NCBI GenBank assembly: GCA_002011125.2 | Contig: MTMF02000009.1 | Location: 744,989-808,988, forward strand | Direction: 5' to 3' | Source: Candidatus Hydrothermarchaeum profundi | Lineage (GTDB): Archaea > Hydrothermarchaeota > Hydrothermarchaeia > Hydrothermarchaeales > Hydrothermarchaeaceae | Length of the DNA: 64,000 bases | The notes under the pieces: generated by a model | Database searches by the model: none | Seen by the model: only the letters and a program-made list of their open reading frames with translations | What the model was told of the DNA's origin: nothing | Position numbers and translations under genes: made by a program | Shown: piece by piece, positions 24,461 to 50,608 of the stretch | How positions within the stretch are numbered: position 1 is the stretch's first letter | Layout of the letters: every line of letters begins with the position of its first letter

Positions 24461-24468
24461 GGTTTAAG

Positions 24469-25596
24469 ATGTATTTGACTAAGGAAGAAGAAAGGATACT
24501 GGATGGAGAAGAAGGGGAAGGCCTTCAAAAGGCCATGGAGATACTTGTAGCTCTGGGTGAAATTAACGAGGCGGATAGACTTATGCCCATTTCTAGTGCT
24601 CAAGTGAGCGGTGTGTCTTATAAGACTATTGGTGATGCTGGACTAGAGTTTCTATCTGATATGGCCTCGACAGGTGCTAGGGTAAGAGTGCTTACTACTC
24701 TCAATCCGATGGGTGTAGATCCCTCTATCTGGAGGGAGCTGGGTTATAGGGAGGATTTCGTAAATAAGCAGATGAGGATTGTTAACGCGTATAAGGCTAT
24801 GGGGATACTGCTTTCATGTACATGTACGCCTTATCTGATAGGTAACCTGCCTACAAGAGGGGAGCATATAGCTTGGGCGGAATCCAGCGCTGTTGTGTTT
24901 GCTAACTCTGTGTTAGGTGCGAAGACTAATCGGGAGAGCGGGGTCTCTGCGTTGGCCTCAGCTTTGATCGGGGAAGCCCCCTGTTATGGCCTTCACTTGG
25001 ATGAGAATAGAAATCCGACCATCACTATCGAGGTTGATGCGGAGTTAAAAAATCAATCCGATTATGCCGCTCTAGGATACTATGTTGGTAAAAGCTTTGG
25101 TGGGATACCTCTATTCAAAGGGATTAAGCCTGGCATGGAGGAGATGAAGGCGCTTGGGGCAGCGTTAGCTGTAGGCTCTATATCAATGTTTTATGTAGAT
25201 GGTATAACCTATTCGGGTAGTGCGCTTGGCGATAAGATAAATGTGGGTATAGAGGAGCTCAGAAATTCCTATGAGTCCCTTACTAATACGGAGGACGTGG
25301 ACGTGGTCTGCGTCGGATGTCCTCATTACAGCTTAAAGGAGATTCAAGAGGTCTTGCAAGCGAAGCCGAGTAGGGATATATGGATTTTTACTTGCAGGCA
25401 GAATAAGGTGCTCTTTGAAAAGAAGTTAGATGAAAATATCAAGATTATAGCTGACACTTGCATGGTGGTTTCTCCCTTAGAGGATCTTGGCATATCTAGT
25501 ATAGGAGTAAATTCTGCTAAAGCAGCTTTTTACTCTGCTAATCTTTCTGGCCTTAAAGTTAGGTTTGACTCTCTAGAGAATATGCTGAAGCTTTAA
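24469..25596 (+). CDS. Aconitase X catalytic subunit (probable phosphomevalonate dehydratase large subunit)
   Basis: MYLTKEEE, GVSYKTIG, CTCTPY, AWAESSA, GCPH, DTCMVV and NSAKAA motifs. Confidence 0.92.
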   Translation: MYLTKEEERILDGEEGEGLQKAMEILVALGEINEADRLMPISSAQVSGVSYKTIGDAGLEFLSDMASTGARVRVLTTLNPMGVDPSIWRELGYREDFVNKQMRIVNAYKAMGILLSCTCTPYLIGNLPTRGEHIAWAESSAVVFANSVLGAKTNRESGVSALASALIGEAPCYGLHLDENRNPTITIEVDAELKNQSDYAALGYYVGKSFGGIPLFKGIKPGMEEMKALGAALAVGSISMFYVDGITYSGSALGDKINVGIEELRNSYESLTNTEDVDVVCVGCPHYSLKEIQEVLQAKPSRDIWIFTCRQNKVLFEKKLDENIKIIADTCMVVSPLEDLGISSIGVNSAKAAFYSANLSGLKVRFDSLENMLKL

Positions 25597-25616: not shown

Positions 25617-25742
25617 GCCGAAAAATATAAATTCTCGGTAGGTCTTTATAAAGGATGGTGCAAAAAGGAGACTCACCTGAGAAGCCTTCTGAAAGGAGGA
25701 AAATCAGGCGAGTTTAGGCGAAAATAAGGAATTTTATAGCCT
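25617..25742 (+). promoter_or_regulatory. CRISPR leader 1 (identical to 41104..41229)
   Basis: 126-bp exact match by eye; BRE/TATA-like CGAAAAATATAAA at the 5' end; abuts the first repeat. Confidence 0.9.
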
Positions 25743-27052
25743 GTTGCAGAAGTCGATCTAGTAAAACAAGGATTGAAACATTCTCTGTCGGTGCTATTGG
25801 TGTTAGCTATTTCGGTTGTTGCAGAAGTCGATCTAGTAAAACAAGGATTGAAACCTAATATGTTGTAATGTAACTCAAAACCAACTTTTAAGTTGCAGAA
25901 GTCGATCTAGTAAAACAAGGATTGAAACGTTTCTAACTGGGATTTATCATTTACAAGAACAAAAAGTTGCAGAAGTCGATCTAGTAAAACAAGGATTGAA
26001 ACTTAACAAAAGAAGTAGGTGGTGAGCTTGTTGTTTAGTAAGTTGCAGAAGTCGATCTAGTAAAACAAGGATTGAAACATTTCCCCATGGAGGCAATGGT
26101 TAGAGAGGTACGGGTGTTGCAGAAGTCGATCTAGTAAAACAAGGATTGAAACATCATCATAGAGTACCTTACCCTGAACTCTATCCTTGGCTCAAGTTGC
26201 AGAAGTCGATCTAGTAAAACAAGGATTGAAACTTGTAATTCGTTCCACATATAGGATAGATACATGTCTGGTTGCAGAAGTCGATCTAGTAAAACAAGGA
26301 TTGAAACAGTCGCAGTGTATCTCTGTATTCAATGTCTAAATCAAGTTGCAGAAGTCGATCTAGTAAAACAAGGATTGAAACCTTGCTGATGTCTTTCTTA
26401 TGTATTTCTTTTGTCTAATTCGTTGCAGAAGTCGATCTAGTAAAACAAGGATTGAAACTTGTAATTCGTTCCACATATAGGATAGATACATGTCTGGTTG
26501 CAGAAGTCGATCTAGTAAAACAAGGATTGAAACCCAACAATCCTTACAACATTTCTCACAAATAAATGTGTTGCAGAAGTCGATCTAGTAAAACAAGGAT
26601 TGAAACCTAACAGTGCAACGGTATATATTATATCGCCTAACACGTTGCAGAAGTCGATCTAGTAAAACAAGGATTGAAACATGTCTTTTCGGTAAATTCG
26701 GCGATATGCGGCGTCGAATGTTGCAGAAGTCGATCTAGTAAAACAAGGATTGAAACCCGAGGATCTCGCTACGATGAGCCGGGAAGAAGTCAGTTGCAGA
26801 AGTCGATCTAGTAAAACAAGGATTGAAACCCAGATATCGCCCCGGCTCTCTTCCCAAAATGGAAGGTTGCAGAAGTCGATCTAGTAAAACAAGGATTGAA
26901 ACAATTGATATCTCCACGGTAAATTATTGAGAATTTTCTGGGTTGCAGAAGTCGATCTAGTAAAACAAGGATTGAAACCTAAGCTTGTATGTCTTCATAA
27001 AAAAACATTAATATTGTTGCAGAAGTCGATCTAGTAAAACAAGGATTGAAAC
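25743..27052 (+). CRISPR. CRISPR array 1: 18 repeats / 17 spacers
   Basis: 37-bp repeat GTTGCAGAAGTCGATCTAGTAAAACAAGGATTGAAAC; spacers about 36-43 bp; possible degenerate terminal repeat near 27088-27124. Confidence 0.98.
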
Positions 27053-27186: not shown

Positions 27187-27594
27187 TCATAGATTTTCAG
27201 GATGCTTGTAACCTAGCTTTTTCATAACGAATCTTCTTACTTCTTTAGTCATTTTTATGGCTTCTTCTGCTTCTTCATTAGTTGGTTCGAGGAGAGTAGG
27301 ATACCTGAACTCTGCCGCATACTCTTTAAACTTTTCTAGGTTCAATTGACGAAGCTTTTCAAAATCTCTTTCACTTTCTATGCACAAGCTCAGTAGGTCA
27401 AGTATATCATGCGTCTTTCTAAATCTGATTTGTTTTGATATCAAATATGCTTTTAAGTACTTTTCTGCGGCTTGCTGTGCGTGGAATGTTATAACCCATG
27501 GCTCTTCTCCATAATTAAGGAGCCTTCTTGCTACTCTCAGCTCTGTTTCCGCTCTATTGAACCATCTATCTACTTCCTCCTTCACTTCGTTCAA
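27187..27594 (-). CDS. HEPN domain protein (HEPN-MNT module)
   Basis: FHAQQAAEKYLKA, KTHDI and FRYP motifs. Confidence 0.9.
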   Translation of the reverse strand: MNEVKEEVDRWFNRAETELRVARRLLNYGEEPWVITFHAQQAAEKYLKAYLISKQIRFRKTHDILDLLSLCIESERDFEKLRQLNLEKFKEYAAEFRYPTLLEPTNEEAEEAIKMTKEVRRFVMKKLGYKHPENL

Positions 27595-27941
27595 AGCGTT
27601 ACACCTTCCTCAGATGCCTCATTTGCTATAGTGTTTACAACATTTTTTTTTCTCTCAAAAGTTTCTCTATCAATTATTATTAAATCAACTTTAATACCAT
27701 ATTCACGTAGTCTTCTTATTGTTTCAATGTAAAAATGCCAGAATGTGTTTCGGTCCACCTTCTCGTTGGTTGTTACCAGTATATCCCAGTCAGAATATTC
27801 TTTAGCCTCCTCACTTGCTCTTGAACCAAACAGGATTATCCTATAAATCTTTATATTGTATTTTTTTGCGGCTTTTAAAATGGTAGTCCTTATTTTCGTA
27901 ATGGCATCTTTATCTATTTCTCTTATCATAGAATTTTCCAT
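27591..27941 (-). CDS. Minimal nucleotidyltransferase (MNT)
   Basis: LFGSRA...SDWDIL; overlaps the HEPN gene. Confidence 0.92.
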   Translation of the reverse strand: MENSMIREIDKDAITKIRTTILKAAKKYNIKIYRIILFGSRASEEAKEYSDWDILVTTNEKVDRNTFWHFYIETIRRLREYGIKVDLIIIDRETFERKKNVVNTIANEASEEGVTL

Positions 27942-29337: not shown

Positions 29338-30420
29338 TTGAAGCTCCTCTTAATTGCTCCTACTACAAGGGCTATGGCAGAGTCCGCTGTTAAGGCTGGC
29401 TATGATTTTTTTACTATAGACTTCTTTGGGGACTTAGATCAAAAGGCGATTTGTTTGAATTACTCCCTTAGAGAAAAGAACTTGAATTACACAATAGAAG
29501 AACTCTACAGGGTGTCTGAGCCTCTTGATTTCACGCATGTAGTTTACGGTGCAGGATTTGAGAATCATCCTGAGTTGGTAGAAAAGTTTGAGGAAAAATG
29601 TACCGTGCTCGGCAATGACGCTAAAACCTTACGCAAAGTTAGAAATTGGAGGTATTTTTTTAAGAAAGCGAGCAAACTTGGGATATCAACTCCTAACACC
29701 GAGATAGTATCTGCTGAAGAGCTACACGATCTGGAAGGAAGAATAGCTAAGTCGGTTAGGAGTGGTGGAGGACATCACATATTTACATCTAAGGAAGAGA
29801 TTATGGAAGGGGAGTTCTTAGTACAAGAGGTCGTGGAGGGTATGCCTGTTTCTTCTTCTATTATATGTTCTCCTACCGAGTGCCGATATCTGGGAGCGAA
29901 TGAGCAGCTCATAGGGGATGAGACTGGCAGGTTCAAGTATTGCGGCAATATCTCGCCAGCAGATGTTGACCTTGAGGAAGTCTCCCTAAAGATAGCTGAT
30001 GAGTTTAATCTCAGAGGACTAAACGGTATAGATTTTATTTGTGGTGATGAAGTTTACTTGCTAGAAGTGAACCCTCGGATAACCGGTGCTATGGAGGTTA
30101 TGGAGAAGGCGTATAACATCAACCTCCTAGACCTACATATTAAGGCATGCCTCGGAGAGCTAGCAGTAGGCGATATCGGTAGCATGGGATATTATGGAAA
30201 AAAAATTATATATGCACCGAGGGACTTGTTTTTTAATATAGAGGCAGTTGCTTTCATCAAAGACATTCCACATCAGGGCGAGTTTATACCTGAGGGTAGC
30301 CCGGTATGCACAGTGATAGGTCACGGGAGCACTAGAGATGAATGCTATAAGGATCTCATAGCAAAGGAGAAGATGATACGTGAGAGTCTACGGGAGAGTT
30401 ATCTCAAGAGGCAAGGCTGA
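29338..30420 (+). CDS. ATP-grasp family protein (COG2232-like)
   Basis: DFFGDLD, GFENHP, SGGG, YCGN, GIDF and LEVNPR motifs. Confidence 0.85.
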   Translation: MKLLLIAPTTRAMAESAVKAGYDFFTIDFFGDLDQKAICLNYSLREKNLNYTIEELYRVSEPLDFTHVVYGAGFENHPELVEKFEEKCTVLGNDAKTLRKVRNWRYFFKKASKLGISTPNTEIVSAEELHDLEGRIAKSVRSGGGHHIFTSKEEIMEGEFLVQEVVEGMPVSSSIICSPTECRYLGANEQLIGDETGRFKYCGNISPADVDLEEVSLKIADEFNLRGLNGIDFICGDEVYLLEVNPRITGAMEVMEKAYNINLLDLHIKACLGELAVGDIGSMGYYGKKIIYAPRDLFFNIEAVAFIKDIPHQGEFIPEGSPVCTVIGHGSTRDECYKDLIAKEKMIRESLRESYLKRQG

Positions 30421-30775
30421 GGGAGAAGCTATACTAACAAGGGAGCCTATCACTTTTCTGGGAGGCGTAGATCCTGATACGGGTGTAGTTGTGGAAAAGG
30501 GCCATGAGTTGGAAGATAGGAGTGTAAGCGGTAAGATACTTGTGTTTCCATGGGGCAAGGGGTCTACAGTTGGCTCCTATGTGTTATACAGGATGAAGAA
30601 AAGTGGCACCGCTCCTTCTGGCATAATAAACCTGAAGGCTGAGGAGGTAGTGTCTGCTGGTGCGATAATATCCGGTATCCCCATGATGGATTCTTTGGAG
30701 AAGGACCCTTTTGAGATACTTGCAGACGGTGTAAAGATCTTTATGAATGCGGACGAAGGATACTTGGAGGTGTAA
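30380..30775 (+). CDS. Aconitase X swivel subunit (probable phosphomevalonate dehydratase small subunit)
   Basis: ITFLGGVDP, GKGSTVGSYV and GAIISGIP motifs. Confidence 0.92.
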   Translation: MRVYGRVISRGKAEGEAILTREPITFLGGVDPDTGVVVEKGHELEDRSVSGKILVFPWGKGSTVGSYVLYRMKKSGTAPSGIINLKAEEVVSAGAIISGIPMMDSLEKDPFEILADGVKIFMNADEGYLEV

Positions 30776-34515: not shown

Positions 34516-34857
34516 TTATTTAAGAACCCAGATCAACTTTTTTCCAGCATGGTACATTGCTTTAAGACCATATTCCTTTGCAAGAGATAGGCCTGCTATA
34601 GTAAAGAGTTTTGTGAGAGGGGTGAGGTCTATTATAATATCGTAGCTTCTCAGATTTGCTTCTATTGCTTTCTTTAACGCCTCTCTTACTTTGTCCATCT
34701 CATGTTGATATACTTCGAACTCAAAAGTAATCTCTTCATCTCCGTAAGTATAGCCGGCGTCTCTTATCTTCTCTTGGGCAAGAGGTGTCGTAAAAGCAAT
34801 ATGTTTCTTGATCTTTATATTTTCTTTTTCAAGGAAGCCCAGAGCATCCTCAAGCAT
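34516..34857 (-). CDS. Stand-alone CARF-like (Rossmann) domain protein, divergent from cas10; true start probably upstream
   Basis: IIIDLTPLTKLFTIAGLSLA resembles the CARF D-x-T-x-x-x-K motif; the frame stays open upstream (…KAPILLISGYTYDP…) up to a stop at 35038-35040. Confidence 0.6.
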   Translation of the reverse strand: MLEDALGFLEKENIKIKKHIAFTTPLAQEKIRDAGYTYGDEEITFEFEVYQHEMDKVREALKKAIEANLRSYDIIIDLTPLTKLFTIAGLSLAKEYGLKAMYHAGKKLIWVLK

Positions 34858-35127
34858 CTCAAGAGTCGTAGAGTCTGGCTTATTCGGGTCGTAAGTGTAT
34901 CCTGATATCAGTAAAATAGGAGCCTTAATCTCAAACTCACGCCTGAAATATTGGATTTTTTGGGGGGTGACGCTATTAGAGATCTCTTTTCCTTTTTTAT
35001 CTTTTAATGAAAATAGAAAAAATATAAATAAAAGTTTTTAAAATATAAACTTGGAGGCAGTTAGTGGGATTAAAGGAGGTTTACTCATGCTCTTTTGCAT
35101 ACTTGGGGAAGTTGTCTGGTGAGTGAG

Positions 35128-36864
35128 ATGAATGAATTAATACCTGAGCTTCATGACATTGGAAAATTACAGAAGAAATATAAACATAATTTTGAAGATG
35201 CTGGATATACATTTGAATCTAAAACTTGGAGAGGGATTTTAGAACATCACTGTTCTCGTAATTTTGAAAAATATCCCTTAAGTTTAGATACTTTCAAATT
35301 AAAAATAGCAGACAAATTAGCATCTGCGGTATCGAGAGAGTATCGTGAAGATGGATGTCCTATTTATAATGTTTATAAGCTATGGAATCCAACGCGCGAG
35401 GAGATAACTATTCCGCCTCTTAGAACTGAGAAAGATATCAAGGAATTAATTGAATTTACTGTTAGCGTATCTACTTTTGAAGATTTTGTAATAAGATATG
35501 AAAAGCTGTTGAAATATCGGACAGAAGATGCGCATCCAAAGTCTAACTTAACTAGTCTGTATACTCATATGTTGCTTACTGGAAAATTATATAGAATATT
35601 GTCCGCGATAGATGAGTATACGGTCCACCAAGAAATTTTTCAAAATAAGGATGCTGTTTGTAGAGCGATTAATGAAAAAATGAACGAGTGGAAACTACGA
35701 GTTGTGCGATGTAAAATAAATTTTTCTCAGAGTCCGATACGTGCAAAAGATATGAATGTTTTTGTGGCATTAAACACTTCTAACGATGAAATTAAGCACA
35801 AATTTAAGGACAATATTTTATTTTCATTTTCAAATGAACTTTTTTTAATCACTGTTCCTAGAGAGGACATTGTTGGCAAAATCTCTGCTCTAATAAGTAA
35901 AAATGGTTTTTGGATAGAAGTATATGGAGAAGATGATATAAAATTGAGCACGATTGCAAATAGAGGTACTAATATATTTGAAAATTTAAGGAATCCAAAG
36001 GTCGTACATTACCAGCTTGAAAAAGAAATCGCGCCTCCAATATGTGAAATATGTCAAATGAGAAAAGCTACTCCTGAAACTAGGTGGGTGGATGAAGAAA
36101 GTGGCATTATCGAGGAATTATGTGAATATTGTTTTAAAATAAGGCAAATACCTGAAGTAAGACTTAAGAAACTTGTAAACTGGTCGAGCGAGGCTGAAAT
36201 TAAGGTTGTCTATCTTAAAATTTCACTTTCGACAGAACAACTTATGCATACTCTCAACCAACTTTATAGAAACTACACTGGAAGCAATGAACATGTTTCC
36301 TTGTCAATAATCTCAGAATTTCAATGGGATTATGAAGAATTTCTTAAGGAATTTGTAAGGAGAATAAGTATCGCGTTTAATGAAGAGGACATTCAATTAA
36401 TTTTAAATGATTTTTTAGGGATAAAAATAGAAAGAACCTCTGATATTAAAAAAATATTAGAGATATATAGCCAAATTTTTAAACAATACTTTCCTGAATT
36501 TATACAAAAATCTCCGATAAGACTTTCGATTAGTTGTTCGAGTGCCAAATTTCCATTTTTCTGGCACTGGAGGATTTTAAACGATACAAAGGACGAAATA
36601 AATGTAAGCATGATCGGAAAGGGTGAGATGCATCTTAAATTTTCTAAACTTGATGAGTTGCTTAGCATAGATTTACCAAATACCCGCATGTTACACAACT
36701 TAGATAGAATATCGCAGATTTCTAAGAAATTAGCATGGATAATGCTTAATGATAGAAGTGACCGGAGAATGTATAAAGAGTTTGAGGGGTTAAAAAGAGC
36801 GGTACTGGCGACAGGGATTAGCTATTCGAGCATATTAACCTATGCAAAGATTATGGGTGATTAG
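35128..36864 (+). CDS. cas10: Cas10-like large subunit: HD nuclease retained, Palm/cyclase GGDD absent (type III-F-like)
   Basis: LHDIGK, ILEHH, IADKLAS; SLYTH; Zn finger CEIC...CEYC; ILNDF at the GGDD position; start ATG 35128 or GTG 35119 (the track's TTG 35095 is less likely). Confidence 0.85.
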   Translation: MNELIPELHDIGKLQKKYKHNFEDAGYTFESKTWRGILEHHCSRNFEKYPLSLDTFKLKIADKLASAVSREYREDGCPIYNVYKLWNPTREEITIPPLRTEKDIKELIEFTVSVSTFEDFVIRYEKLLKYRTEDAHPKSNLTSLYTHMLLTGKLYRILSAIDEYTVHQEIFQNKDAVCRAINEKMNEWKLRVVRCKINFSQSPIRAKDMNVFVALNTSNDEIKHKFKDNILFSFSNELFLITVPREDIVGKISALISKNGFWIEVYGEDDIKLSTIANRGTNIFENLRNPKVVHYQLEKEIAPPICEICQMRKATPETRWVDEESGIIEELCEYCFKIRQIPEVRLKKLVNWSSEAEIKVVYLKISLSTEQLMHTLNQLYRNYTGSNEHVSLSIISEFQWDYEEFLKEFVRRISIAFNEEDIQLILNDFLGIKIERTSDIKKILEIYSQIFKQYFPEFIQKSPIRLSISCSSAKFPFFWHWRILNDTKDEINVSMIGKGEMHLKFSKLDELLSIDLPNTRMLHNLDRISQISKKLAWIMLNDRSDRRMYKEFEGLKRAVLATGISYSSILTYAKIMGD

Positions 36865-37452
36865 ATGGAGTTTCTTGAATATAGGATAACTTCAGATATC
36901 CTTTGTATGGGGGAAAGAATAAAGAAAGGTACATTTAGGCCGTGTATTACTACAATTCCATATAGTCAAATTACTGGTGCTCTAAAAGCAATACTAGGTA
37001 GAGAAATTGCCGCTACTGGATGTTTAATTCGAGATGGGATACACAATAATGTAGAATATCTGATTTATTCGCCTAGAGATAGAAGTACTGAAACCAGCAA
37101 ATTGCCGCTAACGATACAAATTTTAACTAATGTTCTTGGAAGAGTCTTTATACCAAAGAATGATTCGAGTGAACTACCAGAACAGCTTTCAATAACTATG
37201 GGAGCACTTAAATCAAAAGGTATAGGAAGATGTAAATTAAAGAAGATTAGGAAAATTAAAAATCCTCGATTTAAGCGAGGAATGTTGAATACTCGTATTC
37301 CTCTCGATTTGAAAGAAAACTTTGGAATTAGAAATGTTATAAAACCACAGTATGGTTATTTATTTAGACCAACTTCTTCTACAAGCGGCGTTTATGTACT
37401 TTCTCTATTTGAAAACTCAGAAATTTACGGACCAGAATTTCTGATGAGGTGA
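36865..37452 (+). CDS. cas5: Cas5-group RAMP
   Basis: TIPYSQITGAL; Gly-rich loop MGALKSKGIG; directly follows cas10. Confidence 0.75.
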   Translation: MEFLEYRITSDILCMGERIKKGTFRPCITTIPYSQITGALKAILGREIAATGCLIRDGIHNNVEYLIYSPRDRSTETSKLPLTIQILTNVLGRVFIPKNDSSELPEQLSITMGALKSKGIGRCKLKKIRKIKNPRFKRGMLNTRIPLDLKENFGIRNVIKPQYGYLFRPTSSTSGVYVLSLFENSEIYGPEFLMR

Positions 37453-37456
37453 GTAA

Positions 37457-37744
37457 ATGGATGAAATTGAGCAACTTCTTGAGGAAATAAAAAATGATTC
37501 GAATTTTAAAAAAACGAGATTTACCGCAAATTTTGTAAATGATGTAGCCGATGTCTTTGAAAAATATGGATTTGGAACTACAAGGACGTTCCTAATGGAT
37601 AAAAAAAGTCGCAGAGATTTGCACTTGCAAGCAGTAGCAATATTATCAATTTTAGAAAAATTTGAGAAAATAGAGAAGATTAAATTAAACAGAAGTATTG
37701 GGCGGTACATAATAAAAACATTAAATACATTAAAGAGGGGTTAA
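37457..37744 (+). CDS. Small alpha-helical subunit (Cas11-like)
   Basis: 95 aa, helical and charged; lies between cas5 and cas7. Confidence 0.65.
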   Translation: MDEIEQLLEEIKNDSNFKKTRFTANFVNDVADVFEKYGFGTTRTFLMDKKSRRDLHLQAVAILSILEKFEKIEKIKLNRSIGRYIIKTLNTLKRG

Positions 37745-37745
37745 A

Positions 37746-38522
37746 ATGAAAGTAGAGCAGAAATATAAAGTGATTTTAGTTACTGAGGAGCCTTTTAGAA
37801 TTGGCGGACCAAAAGATCCACTTTCAGGAGCGGATAATCCTGTAGCTATCGTAGGAAGCAAACTAGTAGTGCCCGGACCTTCCTTAAAAGGAGCATATCG
37901 AGCAGAAATAGAGAGATTTTTAATAGACAGATATTATGACAAAATAAATAAAAGGTGGGTTCAGGAAAAAGAAAGCTTAATGCCTTGTATACCTGCGACT
38001 AAACTATCAAAGGATGAGGAGAAGCTAGTGAAAAATAGATTATATAGAAGTGTTGCCTGTCATTACCCTTGTGATAAAAGACGAGATAAATGTGGAAATA
38101 CGGAGCATTCTATTTGTCCAGCTTGCTATTTATTAGGCTCCCAGGGATTGAATGGATTTCTTAGGGTACCCTTCTTGTTTTCAGAGGCTTCAGCTAGCGA
38201 GTTATACTCAGCGAGGATAGATCGAGCAGTTAGTACAGTTGCGCAAGGTACAAACAGACCTTATTCGCTAGTACCGGATGGAACTACATTTGAAGGGACA
38301 TTGACGGTTTTAATCAAAGATGATATCCTCGGTTGGGAGCTGGGAAAACCTAGGCCTCTTAGCGATATTTCAGGCAAAGACATATGGTTACCAAGTCAAG
38401 AGTGGACTCAGGAGAGGATACTAAGTGAAATGATAGTCCAAAGACTTCAGAACATTAAAATCCTTGGCGGATATAAATCAAAGGGTTGCGGTAAGGTTAA
38501 AATAACAATTAAAGAAGTATAG
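37746..38522 (+). CDS. cas7: Cas7-group RAMP (Csm3-like)
   Basis: FRIGG, GADNP, VPGPSLKGAYR, Cys cluster CPACYLLG, LGGYKSKGCG. Confidence 0.9.
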   Translation: MKVEQKYKVILVTEEPFRIGGPKDPLSGADNPVAIVGSKLVVPGPSLKGAYRAEIERFLIDRYYDKINKRWVQEKESLMPCIPATKLSKDEEKLVKNRLYRSVACHYPCDKRRDKCGNTEHSICPACYLLGSQGLNGFLRVPFLFSEASASELYSARIDRAVSTVAQGTNRPYSLVPDGTTFEGTLTVLIKDDILGWELGKPRPLSDISGKDIWLPSQEWTQERILSEMIVQRLQNIKILGGYKSKGCGKVKITIKEV

Positions 38523-38564
38523 ATAAAAAAGAGCTATAGCTCGGTCCTTAAAATTTTTATATAG

Positions 38565-39263
38565 ATGAGATTCAAGACAACTTATTTAGTTCTTAGTACA
38601 GATAGGCCAGTCAAAGAAGAGGCTTCTAAGCTTAGAGGCTATATTGGTAACAAGTTTGAGGAGTATCCCATCCTTCATCATCATATAAGGGAAGTCGGCT
38701 ACTTATACACTTATCCTCGAGTGCAATACAAGGTGCTTGAAGGAACGCCTCACATCCTAGGGATAGAGGAGGGTGCGAAGGTATTGAAGGAGATATCAGG
38801 CGGCTTAAATGAGTTGGTATTGGGCAGAAGCCATTATACGGTTAAACAGAAAATACTCTATGAGCAGGAGGTAGAGCTTAGATCTTCTAGGAAGAAGCAG
38901 TATAGGTTTATAACACCTTGGCTGGCCTTAAATCCTGATAACTATAGAACCTATCAGAATATTGAAAATTGGAAGGAAAAGAAGGAGTTTCTAAACCGCA
39001 TACTGGTGGGCAACATACTCTCGATGTGCAAGAGCCTTGGTATAGTAGTGGAAAAGCATTTATATGCCCACACCCATCTTTATTCAAGAAAAGTAAATTA
39101 TAAGAATGCCCCATTAATGGGCTTCACAGGCGAGTTTAGAGTGAACTTTATTATCCCCGAGTTCTTCGGCTTGGGGAAGGGGGTAAGCCAGGGGTTTGGC
39201 GCAGTTAAAAATGAAGGTCGTGATCGACGACTACGGGGCCTACCTGAAGAAAAAAGGCAATAG
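38565..39263 (+). CDS. cas6: CRISPR endoribonuclease Cas6 (Cas6b-like)
   Basis: LRGYIG, HHH, YPRVQYK, TPWLALN and GLGKGVSQGFG motifs. Confidence 0.93.
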   Translation: MRFKTTYLVLSTDRPVKEEASKLRGYIGNKFEEYPILHHHIREVGYLYTYPRVQYKVLEGTPHILGIEEGAKVLKEISGGLNELVLGRSHYTVKQKILYEQEVELRSSRKKQYRFITPWLALNPDNYRTYQNIENWKEKKEFLNRILVGNILSMCKSLGIVVEKHLYAHTHLYSRKVNYKNAPLMGFTGEFRVNFIIPEFFGLGKGVSQGFGAVKNEGRDRRLRGLPEEKRQ

Positions 39264-40209
39264 GTTCATAGTATCCTCAGAGGAGAAGAGCGAGGAGTTT
39301 GCATCTGATAAGGTAACGCAGGTCATTATACTAAAGGGATCGGCGATCACTACTGATGCAGTAAAATTGGCAGCAGAGAAATGCATAGACATAATATGCT
39401 TGGATAGAAGCGGAAAGCCTTACGCTAGAATATACCCGTGCAAGCTAGGTGGCACCACGTTAACTAGAAGAAATCAGCTGGCAGCATATTCAACCTCTAA
39501 GGGAGTCTTTCTGGCTAAAGCTTTTGTAGGCGCTAAAGTTGAAAACATGTCTTATTTTCTTAAGTCACTAGCAAAGAGTAGAGGAAATAGTGTACTAAAA
39601 GAAGCAGGGAATTTGATCTTGAAATTTTCTAAGAATATAGATGATGTAGAGGGAAATATCGATACCGTGAGAAACAGGCTTCTAGGCATTGAGGGTGAAT
39701 GTTCTAAGACTTATTTCTCTGCCTTAAGCGAGGTATTACCTAAAGGGCTCTACTCTGGGGTAAGAACAAGGAGGCCTCCTAGGGATGCGTTTAATGCGAT
39801 GATAAGCTATGGATATGGTGTTTTATATTCTGAGATTGAGAAGGCGTGTATAATTTCTGGGCTAGACCCATATTTAGGCTTCTTGCATACGGATAGATAC
39901 GGTAGACCTTCGCTGGTAATGGATTTGATAGAGGAGTTTAGGCAGCCAGTGGTTGATAGAGCAATGGTAACTCTGGTTGCAAGAGGTCAAGTAGAGAAAG
40001 ACTGCGTTAAAAGAGAGGAGGGAGTGTATCTGAACAAGAAAGGAAGGAAAATGGCTATTGAAGCGATGATGTCTCGCTTGGAGTCAAAAATAAAGTATAA
40101 GGGCAGAAGAATCTCTATGGAGGATATCATATTGAAGCAGGCTAGGGAGTTAGTGGGCTTTCTTAACGGTGACCGTAGGTCATATAAGCCATTTGTCTAC
40201 AGGTGGTGA
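39211..40209 (+). CDS. cas1: CRISPR integrase Cas1
   Basis: LLGIEG, NAMISYGY, GLDPYLGFLH and DLIEEFR motifs. Confidence 0.97.
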   Translation: MKVVIDDYGAYLKKKGNRFIVSSEEKSEEFASDKVTQVIILKGSAITTDAVKLAAEKCIDIICLDRSGKPYARIYPCKLGGTTLTRRNQLAAYSTSKGVFLAKAFVGAKVENMSYFLKSLAKSRGNSVLKEAGNLILKFSKNIDDVEGNIDTVRNRLLGIEGECSKTYFSALSEVLPKGLYSGVRTRRPPRDAFNAMISYGYGVLYSEIEKACIISGLDPYLGFLHTDRYGRPSLVMDLIEEFRQPVVDRAMVTLVARGQVEKDCVKREEGVYLNKKGRKMAIEAMMSRLESKIKYKGRRISMEDIILKQARELVGFLNGDRRSYKPFVYRW

Positions 40210-40210
40210 A

Positions 40211-40513
40211 ATGCTAACTTGGGTGATATATGATATCTCTGATAATAGGCTGCGAACCCGTGTTTCTGAGAAGTGTAAAGACTACGGTATGGAGAGGTTA
40301 CAGAAAAGCGCCTTCCTCGGGGATCTCAGCAGGAATAACTCTGAGATGCTCGCTATAGAGATAGAGAAAATATTGGATGATGAGAATACTGTGGAAGAGG
40401 ACTGCGTATTCTTTTTGCCTATGTGTAGCTCCTGTATAAGCAAGAAGATAACGATTGGCAGAGGATTTGATGAAGAAGAATTTAAGGACAAATTCTACAC
40501 ATTCTTCGAGTGA
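40211..40513 (+). CDS. cas2: Cas2
   Basis: VIYDIS and RLQKSAF motifs; RBS GGTGGTGA. Confidence 0.96.
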   Translation: MLTWVIYDISDNRLRTRVSEKCKDYGMERLQKSAFLGDLSRNNSEMLAIEIEKILDDENTVEEDCVFFLPMCSSCISKKITIGRGFDEEEFKDKFYTFFE

Positions 40514-41100
40514 ATATAATGGACAAAGAGGGCTATTTCTCCGCAAGAGATATAGTAGACTACGCATACTGTCCTAGAACAATATACTTCCGCTACTGTA
40601 TAAAAGCAGGGAAAGAAAAAACGCCAAAAATGAATAAAGGGCAGGAGTTGCATGAGTCTTTCACAGACAAGTCTAAAAGAACAAAAATCGTGAGAAAGTT
40701 GCCAAGGCTCCCTAAGAGATACAGCGTCAGGCTATCCTCAAGAAAGTATCATTTCAATACGATGGTAGATTGCATTATTTTAGATAACTCTAAGGCTTAT
40801 CCAATAGAATTCAAATACTCTTTAAAGCCAAAATACCTATACAATACTCATAAGTATCAGCTTGTCGCGCAGGCAATGGCAATAGAAGAAGAGCTAGGTA
40901 AGATAGTGCCTTACGGTTACATAAAATATGTAGATGGTTCTACAGCCAGGGTTTCAATTACTCAAAAGTTAAAGGAGAAGGTAGCTAATATTCTCCTTGA
41001 GATGGAAGACATAATAAGGTTCGAAAGGCTCCCGAAAGAAACGTCATCGAAGAAGAGATGCAATTCGTGTTTTTACATAAACCTATGTAGAAGACTGTAG
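40510..41100 (+). CDS. cas4: Cas4
   Basis: YCPR, G..LH, VDC, IEFK, QLVAQA and C..C.Y...C motifs. Confidence 0.95.
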   Translation: MNIMDKEGYFSARDIVDYAYCPRTIYFRYCIKAGKEKTPKMNKGQELHESFTDKSKRTKIVRKLPRLPKRYSVRLSSRKYHFNTMVDCIILDNSKAYPIEFKYSLKPKYLYNTHKYQLVAQAMAIEEELGKIVPYGYIKYVDGSTARVSITQKLKEKVANILLEMEDIIRFERLPKETSSKKRCNSCFYINLCRRL

Positions 41101-41103
41101 AAA

Positions 41104-41229
41104 GCCGAAAAATATAAATTCTCGGTAGGTCTTTATAAAGGATGGTGCAAAAAGGAGACTCACCTGAGAAGCCTTCTGAAAGGAGGAAAATCAGGCGAGT
41201 TTAGGCGAAAATAAGGAATTTTATAGCCT
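41104..41229 (+). promoter_or_regulatory. CRISPR leader 2
   Basis: Identical to 25617..25742; abuts the first repeat. Confidence 0.9.
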
Positions 41230-43733
41230 GTTGCAGAAGTCGATCTAGTAAAACAAGGATTGAAACAGTCTACAGGGTCGCTAGTAGTTAAGGATACTAA
41301 TAGTTGCAGAAGTCGATCTAGTAAAACAAGGATTGAAACATGTTCCACAATCTAGAATATGAGCGAGAAATTCTTTGTTGCAGAAGTCGATCTAGTAAAA
41401 CAAGGATTGAAACCTTATACATCAGGCCATGTTCAACAAAATTACTGCACGTTGCAGAAGTCGATCTAGTAAAACAAGGATTGAAACAACTCAAACGAGG
41501 CACGTGCTTTGGCGGCCTCGTAGTGTTGCAGAAGTCGATCTAGTAAAACAAGGATTGAAACATCGAAGACGGAGTTGACAAAAACTCCAGCCTTTTCGTT
41601 GCAGAAGTCGATCTAGTAAAACAAGGATTGAAACCATAATATACCGAGATATACGAGGATATATAAAAACTTGTTGCAGAAGTCGATCTAGTAAAACAAG
41701 GATTGAAACTCCCAGACGAGATAGACGATACCGACTCTCTATACGTTGCAGAAGTCGATCTAGTAAAACAAGGATTGAAACCACCGGCACAGGCATGGCA
41801 GCCGCCAGGGGATACAGGTTGCAGAAGTCGATCTAGTAAAACAAGGATTGAAACGGGGTATACGTGCACCTCAGCGGCAGGGACGTCGACGAGTTGCAGA
41901 AGTCGATCTAGTAAAACAAGGATTGAAACGTTTCCAAGACTTGATATTTATGTAGATTCCTAGCAGTTGCAGAAGTCGATCTAGTAAAACAAGGATTGAA
42001 ACGTCTCAGTGAGCAGGCGGATAGACTTTGAAGACTACGGTTGCAGAAGTCGATCTAGTAAAACAAGGATTGAAACATGTTGATAGCGATAGTGATTTTG
42101 AGAGCGGATTAAAGAGTTGCAGAAGTCGATCTAGTAAAACAAGGATTGAAACTCTTGAACGGATGCATCTCTCGCCAGTCCCTTATCTCTGTTGCAGAAG
42201 TCGATCTAGTAAAACAAGGATTGAAACACCATAAAGCTATTGTTCAATATTCCGAGTGTAAACAAGTTGCAGAAGTCGATCTAGTAAAACAAGGATTGAA
42301 ACTTGCATTTACCGAGGAGCCTTATCTCAGTGCTTTTACCGTTGCAGAAGTCGATCTAGTAAAACAAGGATTGAAACAATTGCCGGAATTCCAGCCAGTT
42401 CTTTTCTATACGTACAAGTTGCAGAAGTCGATCTAGTAAAACAAGGATTGAAACCACTACGCAAAGGCACTAAGCGTAGGCTTCCAGAGGTAAGTTGCAG
42501 AAGTCGATCTAGTAAAACAAGGATTGAAACACCTTAACCTCTTTTTTTGCCTCAACACTATGAGACTTGTTGCAGAAGTCGATCTAGTAAAACAAGGATT
42601 GAAACTGTGACATACGGTCTTGATATATACACATTAAAGCCTGTTGCAGAAGTCGATCTAGTAAAACAAGGATTGAAACTCCTTAATAGTCTTTCCAACT
42701 CAAAGAAATTATCTTCAGTTGCAGAAGTCGATCTAGTAAAACAAGGATTGAAACATATTTATCAACAGATATTACCTCAAATTTTCTATCAGTTGCAGAA
42801 GTCGATCTAGTAAAACAAGGATTGAAACTGTGACATACGGTCTTGATATATACACATTAAAGCCTGTTGCAGAAGTCGATCTAGTAAAACAAGGATTGAA
42901 ACTCCTTAATAGTCTTTCCAACTCAAAGAAATTATCTTCAGTTGCAGAAGTCGATCTAGTAAAACAAGGATTGAAACATATTTATCAACAGATATTACCT
43001 CAAATTTTCTATCAGTTGCAGAAGTCGATCTAGTAAAACAAGGATTGAAACATCATATAGAGCGTCTAAGAACTTATTCCAATTTCTGTTGCAGAAGTCG
43101 ATCTAGTAAAACAAGGATTGAAACTCCTCACTTAGCTCGATGCCCGCCTCATACTTATCTATAATAGTTGCAGAAGTCGATCTAGTAAAACAAGGATTGA
43201 AACTGCTCGGCATTACTCAGCTCTTCATACCATTCTGTAGCGTTGCAGAAGTCGATCTAGTAAAACAAGGATTGAAACAGATCCTCAAACATATTTCATC
43301 ACTCCTTACATTTTTTTTGTTGCAGAAGTCGATCTAGTAAAACAAGGATTGAAACAAATAATCCAGGATTAAACCAGTATGCTGTTAGCTCATTAGGTTG
43401 CAGAAGTCGATCTAGTAAAACAAGGATTGAAACGGGATTTTCTGCAACTCTCTGTCTAATATCTTTTGTAAGTTGCAGAAGTCGATCTAGTAAAACAAGG
43501 ATTGAAACTGGTGTAGCTTCGTGTTGTGTCAAATTTAATATCCTCGTTGCAGAAGTCGATCTAGTAAAACAAGGATTGAAACAATTCATTTTTCAATTTC
43601 CAAACTCTTGGCGTCTTTTTGTTGCAGAAGTCGATCTAGTAAAACAAGGATTGAAACCCTGCCAAGCCTTTCAACGTTGCAATCTGAACTGGCAGAGTTG
43701 CAGAAGTCGATCTAGTAAAACAAGGATTGAAAC
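41230..43733 (+). CRISPR. CRISPR array 2: 34 repeats / 33 spacers
   Basis: Same 37-bp repeat as array 1; 3' ATTGAAAC and the leader position give + orientation. Confidence 0.98.
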
Positions 43734-43811
43734 GGGTGGAGTAGAGTTATAAGTGTTGGAGTTAATTATCATGAATAGAGTATCTTCTACTCTAGCAGAG
43801 GAGAATGGTAT

Positions 43812-44120
43812 ATGGAGCCTAAAAGAATCAAAGAACTCGTTGAAAATGATGACTTCGTTATTTCGAGCCACGCAAGAACGAGAATGTTCCAGAGGAATGT
43901 CTCTACTGATGAGATTAAAAGCATTATACTCCTCGGTGAAGTAATTGAGGAGTACCCAGATGACGAGCCCTGTCCTTCGGTCCTAATCTTAGGTTTTCTA
44001 AAGGATGCTCCCTACCATGTTGTTGTGGCAGAATGCTTAGACCATGTTAGGATAATAACAGTTTATAACCCAGAAGCGGATAAATGGGTTGACTACCGGA
44101 AAAGGAGGAGCCGAAATTGA
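43812..44120 (+). CDS. DUF4258 family putative toxin
   Basis: SSHARTRMFQR, GEVIEEYPDD..PS.L and IITVYNP motifs. Confidence 0.88.
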   Translation: MEPKRIKELVENDDFVISSHARTRMFQRNVSTDEIKSIILLGEVIEEYPDDEPCPSVLILGFLKDAPYHVVVAECLDHVRIITVYNPEADKWVDYRKRRSRN

Positions 44121-44362
44121 AGCCTAGGAAATGTGGCCTGTGTAAGGGAAGACTTCAAAAAGGAAAAACGGAATTCACAGTAAAGGTTGAGAAGACGATC
44201 CTCTCTATTAAGGATGTGCCAGCCTATGTATGTCAGGAGTGTGGAGAGGCCTACTTCACCCCAAGGATCTCGCGGAAGATCGACAAGGTAATGAAGGAGT
44301 TTCACGAAGGCAGACTTTTGGCTTATCCAATCGCTGCTGGAGAAATCAGGCTCGAAGCCTAA
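44117..44362 (+). CDS. YgiT/MqsA-type zinc-finger antitoxin
   Basis: CGLC...VPAYVCQECGEAYF; overlaps the DUF4258 stop. Confidence 0.88.
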   Translation: MKPRKCGLCKGRLQKGKTEFTVKVEKTILSIKDVPAYVCQECGEAYFTPRISRKIDKVMKEFHEGRLLAYPIAAGEIRLEA

Positions 44363-44403
44363 AAAGTTTTAGCTATTTTTATCTATTGATTCTAAGTATC
44401 CAA

Positions 44404-44585
44404 TTTGCAGGTTAAATACTAGAGGGAGTTATTAGATTGAGGCTATATACTGGGAGGTTATTAATAGCCTCAGTAAGTTCTATGATTCCGTTGCAGAAGT
44501 CGATCTAGTAAAAGGAATTGGAATGCTCTCGTCAACGAAAGCAAACTCCAGTGCTTATTCAGGTTGTAAAAGTTAATTTCGTAAT
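44404..44585 (+). CRISPR. Degenerate trailer mini-array (one strong and two weak repeat copies)
   Basis: 44490-44513 is an exact 24-nt match to the repeat 5' part, followed by GGAATTGGAAT; weak copies near 44404-44443 (TTGCAG..CTAG..GATTGA) and 44563 (GTTGTAAAAG). Confidence 0.65.
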
Positions 44586-44705: not shown

Positions 44706-44909
44706 TTGAAGATTATGTCTACCACAATAATGGTTCGTGAGGATCTCATGAAGATGCTTAACAAATTGAAAAAGGAGACCGGAGCAAAAAGCTATGACGA
44801 GTTGCTAAGGAAGCTACTAAAGAGAGCGAAGAGATTGGAAAAAACCCATTTTGGGACTCTGCCGGATATTAAGAGCTTTGAGAGGGAGGAACTTGACCGT
44901 TTTGATTGA
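44706..44909 (+). CDS. VapB-type antitoxin
   Basis: TTIMV...LNKLK...SYDELLRKLL; overlaps the PIN gene. Confidence 0.85.
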   Translation: MKIMSTTIMVREDLMKMLNKLKKETGAKSYDELLRKLLKRAKRLEKTHFGTLPDIKSFEREELDRFD

Positions 44910-45267
44910 CTCTTGGGCCTGGATAGAATATTTTAAAGGCTCGGAGGCAGGGGCTAAAGCGAGGAAAATCATCGAGGGCGATGAGGAGTCCATCGTGAGC
45001 ACGATAAACCTGGCAGAGGTCTACCAATGGATTCTCAGGTTTTATGGTGAAAAGACTGCAGATGAGAAGATAGAGGTTATTAAAAAGAGGTGTTTTGTGG
45101 TAGATGTTGACCCAGAAATTGCGATAGCTAGTGCAATGATTAAGCACGATATGGAATTTGGTTTGGGCGATGCTATCGTGCTAGCTACTGCCAGGCGTGA
45201 GAATGCTAAGGTGTTGACAGGCGACCCAGATTTTGAAAACCTGGAAGATGCGGTATGGCTTGGTTAG
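44893..45267 (+). CDS. vapC: VapC PIN-domain toxin
   Basis: IDSWAWIEY, NLAEV, GDAIVLATA and TGDPDF motifs; RBS GGAGG before the TTG. Confidence 0.92.
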   Translation: MTVLIDSWAWIEYFKGSEAGAKARKIIEGDEESIVSTINLAEVYQWILRFYGEKTADEKIEVIKKRCFVVDVDPEIAIASAMIKHDMEFGLGDAIVLATARRENAKVLTGDPDFENLEDAVWLG

Positions 45268-50069: not shown

Positions 50070-50264
50070 ATGCCCACAACAATTACAATAAGCGAAAGCA
50101 CAAAACAGGTGCTTAAAAATATCAAAGGCAAGAAAAAATGGGACATCCTTCTTAGGGAACTTGCAGAGGAGTATATGAAGATTAAGAGGGAAAGAGTGAG
50201 AAAGGAACTCAAGAAGTTGCTTATAGAAGAGACGAGGGTTAGGAAATGGGCGAGGGAGTACTAG
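50070..50264 (+). CDS. Antitoxin (RHH-like)
   Basis: MPTTITIS...WDILL; overlaps the PIN gene. Confidence 0.8.
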   Translation: MPTTITISESTKQVLKNIKGKKKWDILLRELAEEYMKIKRERVRKELKKLLIEETRVRKWAREY

Positions 50265-50608
50265 TTGATACAGATGTTTTGATCGATTTTGTAAATGAAA
50301 AAACTGAACTTCCAAATAGTCCCTTATATATAACTGAGGTAACCCTCTATGAGTTTATACGGGGATCTCGGGACATCTCAAAATCAAAAGCTCTTCTTGA
50401 AGAGGCATTCTCCGTCATATACCATGAGAACCCCATAATCCAAAAAGCATCAGAAATTTGGGTTACACTCAGAAGGGAAGGGGAAATCTTGGACGATAGG
50501 GACATCCTTATCGGGGCAGCCGCTATGATTAAGAACATTCCTTTATTAACCCGCAACAAGAAACATTACGAAAAGCTCAAAGAATTCGGCATAACTTTTT
50601 ACAAATAG
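50246..50608 (+). CDS. vapC: VapC PIN-domain toxin
   Basis: VDTDVLID, DILIGAAA and TRNKKHY motifs. Confidence 0.92.
   Translation: MGEGVLVDTDVLIDFVNEKTELPNSPLYITEVTLYEFIRGSRDISKSKALLEEAFSVIYHENPIIQKASEIWVTLRREGEILDDRDILIGAAAMIKNIPLLTRNKKHYEKLKEFGITFYK

Follow-up and report, generated by a model that had tools for sequence, protein, structure and literature searches.

What sets off a type III CRISPR-Cas system that carries a nuclease but no signalling enzyme: RNA, DNA or both? Subtype III-F has the nuclease and not the signalling enzyme, and a III-F locus that makes a good test case lies in the stretch of DNA analysed here, 64,000 nt of contig MTMF02000009.1 from the uncultured archaeon Candidatus Hydrothermarchaeum profundi (hereafter the window; all coordinates are window positions). 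Our reading, to which we give a probability of about 60%, is that the locus is a complete, stand-alone archaeal subtype III-F system with an RNA-triggered HD nuclease, which would make no cyclic oligoadenylate.

Eight cas genes of subtype III-F

The locus comprises eight cas genes, all on the + strand between 35128 and 41100, separated by a few bases or overlapping slightly:

35128..36864, +, cas10f: 578 aa from the ATG at 35128 (open reading frame, ORF, 35095-36864); identical to the called protein P0001
36865..37452, +, cas5f: 195 aa; Cas5_IIIf, E 7.1e-61
37457..37744, +, cas11f, short small subunit: 95 aa; Cas11f (PDLC01224), E 8.3e-32
37746..38522, +, cas7f, the sole RAMP backbone gene: 258 aa; Cas7_IIIf, E 9.1e-63
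38565..39263, +, cas6, Cas6b family (pre-crRNA endonuclease; crRNA, CRISPR RNA): Cas6b_N, E 1.4e-29; Cas6b_C, E 5.5e-43; PADLOC Cas6b, E 2e-66
39196..40209, +, cas1: Cas1b, E 7.3e-103; Pfam Cas1, 281.5 bits; TIGR00287, 299.6 bits
40211..40513, +, cas2: 100 aa from the ATG (ORF open from 40169); Cas2b, E 4e-27
40510..41100, +, cas4, PD-(D/E)xK nuclease with N- and C-terminal cysteines: PADLOC Cas4, E 3.7e-33; TIGR00372, 109.7 bits

The cas1 ORF opens at a TTG (39196), the ATG at 39211 being the likelier start. Names were assigned with the Pfam, NCBIfam and PADLOC CRISPR profiles. The first two collections identified five of the eight proteins (Cas6b, Cas1, Cas2, Cas4 and Cas7), Cas7 being matched weakly (RAMPs, 21.3 bits; Csx7, 48 bits), and gave no match for Cas10f, Cas5f or Cas11f, while the PADLOC profiles named all eight. 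Every ORF is intact and full length relative to its profile. A first-pass annotation, made from the sequence alone, had reported these genes together with a set of motifs (LHDIGK, EHH, IAD, a zinc finger and ILNDF in Cas10, GADNP in Cas7); all were found where it had placed them. Its proposal of a III-F composition was borne out as well, since subtype profiles matched all four effectors (E from 3e-111 to 8e-32). The locus is thus a further example of a known, rare subtype, neither unique nor a new kind of system.

Cas10f: an intact HD motif and a probably dead cyclase

Cas10f matched the PADLOC profile Cas10a|Cas10f (PDLC01558) with an E-value of 3e-111. The label of this profile is ambiguous ("CAS-III-A"), and its specificity was therefore checked on 14 well-known control genomes: it matched none of them, and a generic Cas10 model matched nine at a limit of 0.1 and five at 1e-5. 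The family is rare: of 1.84 billion cluster representatives, 229 match at E<=1e-30. Few of the 90 Cas10f homologues carried a name, and most of those that did were archaeal 'hypothetical proteins'; 35 relatives picked from the 90 were aligned.

The LHDIGK motif provides H9, D10 and K13, EHH provides H40 and H41, and IAD provides D62; H147 is also present, and the zinc finger consists of C306, C309, C332 and C335. Seven residues (H9, D10, K13, D62, H147, D208 and N210) were invariant in the 35 aligned relatives, as were three of the four zinc-finger cysteines, and the residues of the HD.HH.D.H pattern were conserved in all 35 or nearly so. A wider check took the best 150 representatives, of which 134 are full length; H9, D10, D62 and H147 are kept in at least 130 of the 134. 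The family profile also matched the HD domain of S. thermophilus Csm1 (E 1.2e-6), and an excerpt of one paper gives the HD.HH.D.H pattern for both III-A and III-F (PMC12700095).

The AlphaFold2 model of Cas10f was of good quality by its predicted local distance difference test (pLDDT, 90.3) and predicted template-modelling (pTM, 0.90) scores. Compared with the PDB by Foldseek, its top 50 matches were all Csm1 chains, with template-modelling scores of 0.44-0.62 on the query (e.g. 6ifn_A, E 1.4e-12). The ILNDF sequence occupies residues 425-429. In the model the Palm2 hairpin is made of strands 422-426 and 429-434, and N427 and D428 of ILNDF form its turn; palm-domain cyclases bear GGDD at this hairpin. 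No [GAS]G[DE][DE] motif was found in the Palm2 hairpin segment of any of the 134 full-length relatives, and the position of the beta-1 aspartate is a serine in Cas10f. When the Cas10f profile was aligned by hhalign with an ordinary GGDD-bearing Cas10 from a relative in the same order (L055), the match covered 40 columns of Palm1 only, with a probability of 12%; because it stopped short of Palm2, the equivalence of ILNDF and GGDD is topological and not a residue-level superposition.

The cyclase-dead Cas10 of the first-pass annotation is supported by the model and by the conservation data, which point to a Cas10f whose cyclase is dead and whose HD nuclease motif is intact; no GGDD equivalent was found in the protein. 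In the extract of a published survey, all of its III-F systems lack cyclase motifs and effectors (PMC11229360). One review passage has III-E and III-F without Cas10 (PMC10828431), which conflicts with other sources and with this locus.

The backbone: a Csm3-like Cas7f

The single Cas7 scored 210 bits (E 9.1e-63) with the Cas7_IIIf profile, followed by Csm3 (58 bits, E 2.6e-16) and typeIV_Cas7 (15.2 bits, E 0.003). The aspartate of its GADNP sequence is D30. The xDNPV loop to which it belongs (ADNPV here) aligns with IDNPV of T. onnurineus Csm3 (chain 6iqw_C), pairing D30 with Csm3 D36 (a number counted from the printed alignment), which we take to be the catalytic residue of that protein; the two proteins also have a CPxC segment in common. 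The model of Cas7f (pLDDT 87.2) matched type VII Cas7, III-D Cas7 paralogues and Csm3. In the best 120 of 565 profile matches, C81, C105, C124 and C127 were invariant (120/120).

Related loci and two variants of III-F

For comparison, 35 related loci were taken from species-representative genomes, archaeal and bacterial, and searched by tblastn with the window proteins. Many of their contigs are cut, so that the gene counts are lower bounds:

cas5f: match in at least 26 of 35
cas7f: match in at least 25 of 35
short cas11f: match in at least 9 of 35
cas6: match in at least 8 of 35
cas1: match in at least 14 of 35
cas2: match in at least 9 of 35
cas4: match in at least 7 of 35

Arrays accompanied 15 of the 35 loci, and in 13 of these 15 the repeat, read on the cas10f strand, ended in an octamer like ATTGAAAC, the end of the window repeat. 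One locus (L009) has the gene order of the window. Most III-F loci are without arrays according to the part of the 2025 classification that deals with them (PMC12669027); with arrays in 15 and cas1 in 14 of the 35, complete III-F loci are therefore not exceptional in metagenomic diversity. Complete loci like that of the window also occur in public genomes bearing strain names (Methanothermococcus sp. Ax23 and Caloranaerobacter sp. DY30410), and such loci make this one window less valuable. The III-F prototype named in a passage of PMC8036902, Thermotoga lettingae TMO Tlet_0097-0100, was absent from the best 120 of the 565 Cas7f profile matches.

A new point of this analysis is that, judged by sequence, III-F splits into two variants. 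The first, which includes the window, combines a short Cas11f (95 aa here) with a Cas7 whose catalytic position is D, E, H or N. In the second, seen in 11 loci (L012, L015, L019, L020, L022, L023, L025, L028, L029, L032 and L037), Cas11f is about 205 aa long, the repeats are mostly of 30 nt and a lysine stands at the Cas7 catalytic position. Both are matched by the III-F profiles. In L015, cas6 lies upstream, and cas1-cas2-cas4 and a 78-repeat array lie downstream.

Origin of the module and the rest of the genome

The best-matching profiles of cas6, cas1 and cas2 are of I-B type (Cas6b, Cas1b and Cas2b). Base composition differs along the locus: cas10f-cas7f have a GC content of 0.340, against 0.409 in cas6-cas4 and a mean of 0.391 in the genome, and only 3.8% of 559 genome windows reach the low value of the effector module. 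Among 35 genomes of the order, Cas10f was found in one, Cas1 in 10, RAMPs in six and DevR in three, and relatives within the order carry array stretches with leader-like and repeat-like sequences. The GC contrast, the single Cas10f occurrence and the similar leader-arrays in relatives thus suggest horizontal gain of the effectors: an AT-rich III-F effector module would have joined a resident I-B-type module consisting of cas6-cas1-cas2-cas4 and array.

Is the system alone in its genome? The assembly (2.19 Mb, 97.65% complete) was searched with profiles throughout. One Cas1, one RAMP and one Cas10 were found; there was no second copy of any of them, no Cas5d and no DevR-type (I-B) Cas7. The best cas3_core match, located outside this locus, reached 73 bits, below the cut-off of 102.45. 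Cas_APE2256 CARF (PF09651) was absent from the genome, the other CARF and SAVED families not having been searched genome-wide; none of these families was found in the Pfam scan of the 51 ORFs of the window. Assignment to I-D was rejected, there being no Cas3 over the cut-off and the Cas1d profile scoring below Cas1b on the window Cas1. The possibility left by the first-pass annotation that the genes are ordinary I-D or III-A effectors did not hold up either, as III-F profiles were best, no Cas3 passed the cut-off and no extra RAMPs were present.

Two further contigs of the bin consist of an array only, without cas genes. C1 (2638 bp) contains 34 copies of another 37-nt repeat, ending in ATTGAAAG, and C6 (1959 bp) contains 29 copies of a 30-nt repeat whose reverse complement ends in ATTGAAAT. 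The annotation had called the system self-contained. This stands for the assembled genome, in which no other effector or adaptation genes occur among the families searched; it is qualified by these two arrays with other repeats.

They raise the possibility that cas6-cas1-cas2-cas4 and the arrays are owned by, or shared with, a second effector system, unassembled or lost, from which III-F borrows crRNAs as most type III loci do. The I-B-type best matches of Cas1, Cas2 and Cas6, the GC difference between these genes and the effector genes, the arrays of C1 (34 copies) and C6 (29 copies), the 2.35% of marker genes missing from the assembly and the lack of arrays in most III-F loci, as the excerpted classification has it (PMC12669027), all go in this direction. 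The genome search nevertheless yielded no partner (no Cas3 over the cut-off, DevR Cas7, Cas5d, or second Cas1, RAMP or Cas10), the eight cas genes all point the same way and lie almost end to end or overlap slightly, and their linkage is found again in distant lineages (cas1 in 14, cas6 in eight, cas4 in seven and arrays in 15 of the 35 related loci, with the same order in L009). We thus consider a second owner very unlikely, and a system that serves itself remains our reading.

Arrays, leaders and spacers

The 34-repeat array behind cas6-cas1-cas2-cas4 and the second array, both reported earlier, were confirmed, with 34 and 18 perfect repeats:

25617..25742, +, leader (126 nt) of array 1: the same sequence precedes array 2
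25743..27052, +, CRISPR array 1: 18 perfect 37-nt repeats, 17 spacers; spacer 7 is the same as spacer 10
41104..41229, +, leader of array 2: 126 nt
41230..43733, +, CRISPR array 2: 34 perfect 37-nt repeats, 33 spacers
43734..44489, +, insert of 756 bp carrying two genes, with repeat 34 on one side and the degenerate repeat on the other
44490..44526, +, degenerate 53rd (terminal) repeat: first 24 nt as in the repeat, remainder diverged

The 37-nt repeat ends in ATTGAAAC. Its 52 mismatch-free copies are all in the window, none being found elsewhere in the genome, and shuffled sequence gave no match. It is largely unstructured, folding no better than its shuffles (z -0.99). Spacer length is 35-43 nt, and internal duplications reduce the 50 spacers to 46 unique ones; the first-pass annotation had noted neither these duplications nor the degenerate repeat. 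In array 2 a three-unit block of 223 bp (42569-42791) is repeated exactly, in tandem, at 42792-43014, and in array 1 an exact internal duplication (26233-26496) contains one spacer twice. Intact cas1, cas2 and cas4 and the 50 spacers suggest that the system may be adapting, as described earlier. Rfam, at its gathering threshold, matched no family between 25000 and 45000, and the leader-repeat junction and the full repeat had no match in the metagenomes scanned.

The insert at the end of array 2 carries a DUF4258 gene (43812-44120, E 2.6e-25) and a gene (44117-44362) for a zinc-ribbon protein that matches MqsA weakly; a toxin-antitoxin-like cassette seems to have been inserted there. Further genes of toxin-antitoxin type lie around the arrays. 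A HEPN and nucleotidyltransferase pair lies just past array 1 (27187-27941, - strand), VapB-like and PIN genes lie past array 2 (44706-45267, + strand), and another PIN gene lies at 50246-50608 (+ strand). The genes for the large subunit of aconitase-X (24457-25596) and for its swivel domain (30380-30775) are split apart by array 1 together with some 3 kb of genes of other kinds (a toxin-antitoxin pair, MerB-like and ATP-grasp genes). A 113-aa ORF without a Pfam match (34516-34857, - strand) lies immediately 5' of cas10f, from which it is separated by an AT-rich intergenic region (34858-35127). The window is archaeal by its gene content (KaiC-type ATPases, a thermosome and the ThrRS editing domain of archaea) and contains, at 179-6214 (+ strand), a gene for a 2011-aa protein, probably a large surface protein, with weak matches to bacterial Ig-like, invasin-D3 and MG2 domains.

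Could the locus be a decaying or purely regulatory remnant, without interference? The lost cyclase, the duplicated spacer blocks and the toxin-antitoxin cassette near the array end would fit such a history. A remnant would hardly be expected to show eight intact, full-length ORFs, 52 perfect repeats out of 52 and complete HD and zinc-finger residues; moreover, the cas genes are present, with no differing letter, in two DNA runs from two studies, one of which may be the source sample (the arrays are unassembled in the contigs of these runs). A remnant is thus extremely unlikely in our estimation.

RNA or DNA as the trigger

We propose the following scheme. Cas1, Cas2 and Cas4 would insert 35-43-nt spacers beside the leaders, and Cas6b would cleave the largely unstructured repeat so as to leave the 8-nt ATTGAAAC as a 5' handle. 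The crRNA would then be bound by a complex with single copies of Cas10f and Cas5f and multiple copies of Cas7f and Cas11f. A complementary transcript that pairs with the crRNA would activate the HD nuclease of Cas10f, which would degrade single-stranded nucleic acid near the invader, until the bound RNA is cleaved every 6 nt by D30 of Cas7f and the signal is ended. Cyclic oligoadenylate would not be made, nor a CARF or SAVED effector used.

Spacers, read as crRNA, were scored as sense or antisense to coding sequence. A strand classifier based on codon usage was trained on 750 long host ORFs; it was correct for 81% of 37-nt gene fragments and gave 0.499 for genomic fragments of random strand. 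Thirty-three of the 46 unique window spacers scored as antisense (p=0.0045), and their mean purine content was 0.468 (p=0.036). The array of C1 was biased in the same sense (26/32, p=0.0005), and that of C6 had 11 antisense and 17 sense spacers.

Several observations weigh against this scheme. In the related loci the pooled antisense bias was weak (228/397, p=0.0036), only one of 13 arrays (L020) was alone below p=0.05, and L018, whose Cas7 has the aspartate, showed no bias (29 versus 33). The bias was also alike in the two variants (97/173 for Asp/Glu versus 131/224 for Lys). A purine- or pyrimidine-rich protospacer-adjacent motif (PAM) alone could mimic it, host coding strands being 56% purine. 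Comparison of both arrays with a phage collection gave protospacer matches at chance level (E ~0.8) or none, and no RNA sequencing run holding the locus was found. In the best 120 of 565 matches the catalytic position of Cas7f is D in 44 sequences, E in 31, K in 29 and H in 16, and it also varies among 25 Cas7f homologues of the related loci; being unconserved, it suggests that RNA cutting is dispensable for many III-F members. The placing of ILNDF at the GGDD site is a prediction from model topology. Lastly, the target of III-F is tabulated as 'DNA?' in an excerpted table (PMC8036902), type IV-C senses PAM-flanked double-stranded DNA and is derived from III-F by its authors, according to an extract of their paper (PMC13676074), and cas4 is present in this locus and in at least seven of the 35 related loci.

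Other spacer searches were negative too. In IMG/VR, exact 24-27-mers from five of the 46 unique spacers had no match. A comparison of array 2 with the 35 genomes of the order brought up sequences resembling the repeat and a single spacer match of 26 nt (E 0.0067), which we treated as chance. The best match of any spacer in the genome itself was 29 of 37 positions, inside a 650-aa ORF on contig C8, and is unconvincing; there was no convincing match either to contig C18 (37 kb), a virus- or plasmid-like sequence in which the ORFs of at least 120 aa are short and nearly all on one strand.

Cas4 is normally a PAM-selecting adaptation factor. A III-F complex could instead sense double-stranded DNA: Cas4 would select spacers by their PAM, Cas10f and Cas5f would read the PAM, and the R-loop would switch on collateral cutting of single-stranded DNA or RNA by the HD domain, the aspartate of Cas7f being a leftover or a side activity. 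Besides cas4 (here and in at least seven of 35 loci), the 'DNA?' entry (PMC8036902, in part) and the varying Cas7 position, this alternative has in its favour the near-invariance of the HD residues and the example of IV-C, which acts in this way and for which descent from III-F and a similar Cas10 architecture are proposed in the excerpted study (PMC13676074). It accounts less well for the retained ADNPV loop, which aligns with the catalytic loop of Csm3, for the far better score of Cas7f with Csm3 (58 bits) than with type IV Cas7 (15 bits), for the sequence match of the HD domain with III-A Csm1 and for the antisense bias of the window (33/46) and C1 (26/32) spacers. The resemblance of cas6-cas1-cas2-cas4 to a borrowed I-B module also detracts from it, since Cas4 may simply have arrived with the module. 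On balance, sensing of double-stranded DNA is possible though unlikely, and the evidence leans towards transcript sensing at this locus rather than PAM-dependent DNA sensing. An intermediate proposal is that the Asp-bearing, Cas4-linked III-F variant is a living intermediate between type III and IV-C, in which Cas7 would still cut RNA, the HD trigger would be PAM-dependent DNA, or RNA and DNA together, and Cas4 would supply PAM-matched spacers; this we hold to be quite unlikely.

Comparison with known systems

Our literature search of full texts returned no experimental characterization of III-F, a subtype placed at the root of type IV by one study, as far as its extract goes (PMC13676074). 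The eight genes of the locus, with their own Cas6 and a defined repeat, are all that is needed to rebuild the system, and once rebuilt it would allow the trigger of a cyclase-less type III system (RNA, DNA or both) to be tested directly.

The processing and adaptation part resembles an I-B module by its best profiles (Cas6b, Cas1b and Cas2b) and by its unstructured repeat ending in ATTGAAAC, but the genome search brought up no Cas8b, I-B Cas7, Cas5 or Cas3 to go with it. With III-A (the Csm complexes of S. thermophilus and T. onnurineus), the window shares a Csm1-like Cas10 fold, the HD pattern, the Csm3-like xDNPV loop and CPxC and, probably, the mechanism of an RNA-activated HD nuclease. It differs in that Cas10f has no GGDD and is shorter (578 aa, against 650-801 residues for solved Csm1 chains) and in that a Csm5-type second Cas7 and Csm6 are not seen, for which reasons ordinary III-A was rejected.

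III-H, a distant relative of III-F, likewise combines an inactive cyclase with an HD domain that appears to be active. It lacks a separate cas11 (a Cas11-like part replaces the C-terminus of Cas10), the Cas7 aspartate and an adaptation module, at least as described in the relevant passages of the classification (PMC12669027), whereas the window has a separate 95-aa Cas11f, D30 in Cas7 and cas1-cas2-cas4 adjacent to the effectors; III-H was rejected on these three grounds. The IV-C complex (Cas10IVc-Cas11-Cas7-Cas5) is similarly a minimal assembly of four subunits with an HD-bearing, cyclase-less Cas10-like large subunit (excerpt of PMC13676074). The window is set apart from it by the Cas7 scores (typeIV_Cas7, 15.2 bits, versus Cas7_IIIf, 210 bits), on which IV-C was rejected: its Cas7 is Csm3-like and not Csf2-like, and keeps the catalytic aspartate. 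IV-C loci are, in addition, mostly without arrays in the excerpted classification (PMC12669027), and adaptation genes are usually missing from type IV systems in the part of a review that describes them.

The closest likeness is to III-F itself. The four-gene cas10-cas5-cas11-cas7 module, with all four proteins on III-F profiles, is shared, as are the presence of the HD domain and the absence of the cyclase motif; an effector dependent on cyclic oligoadenylate may be lacking here as well, none having been found among the families searched. To this module the window adds cas6, cas1, cas2, cas4 and two arrays, which sets it apart from most III-F systems, described without arrays in the excerpt of the classification (PMC12669027).

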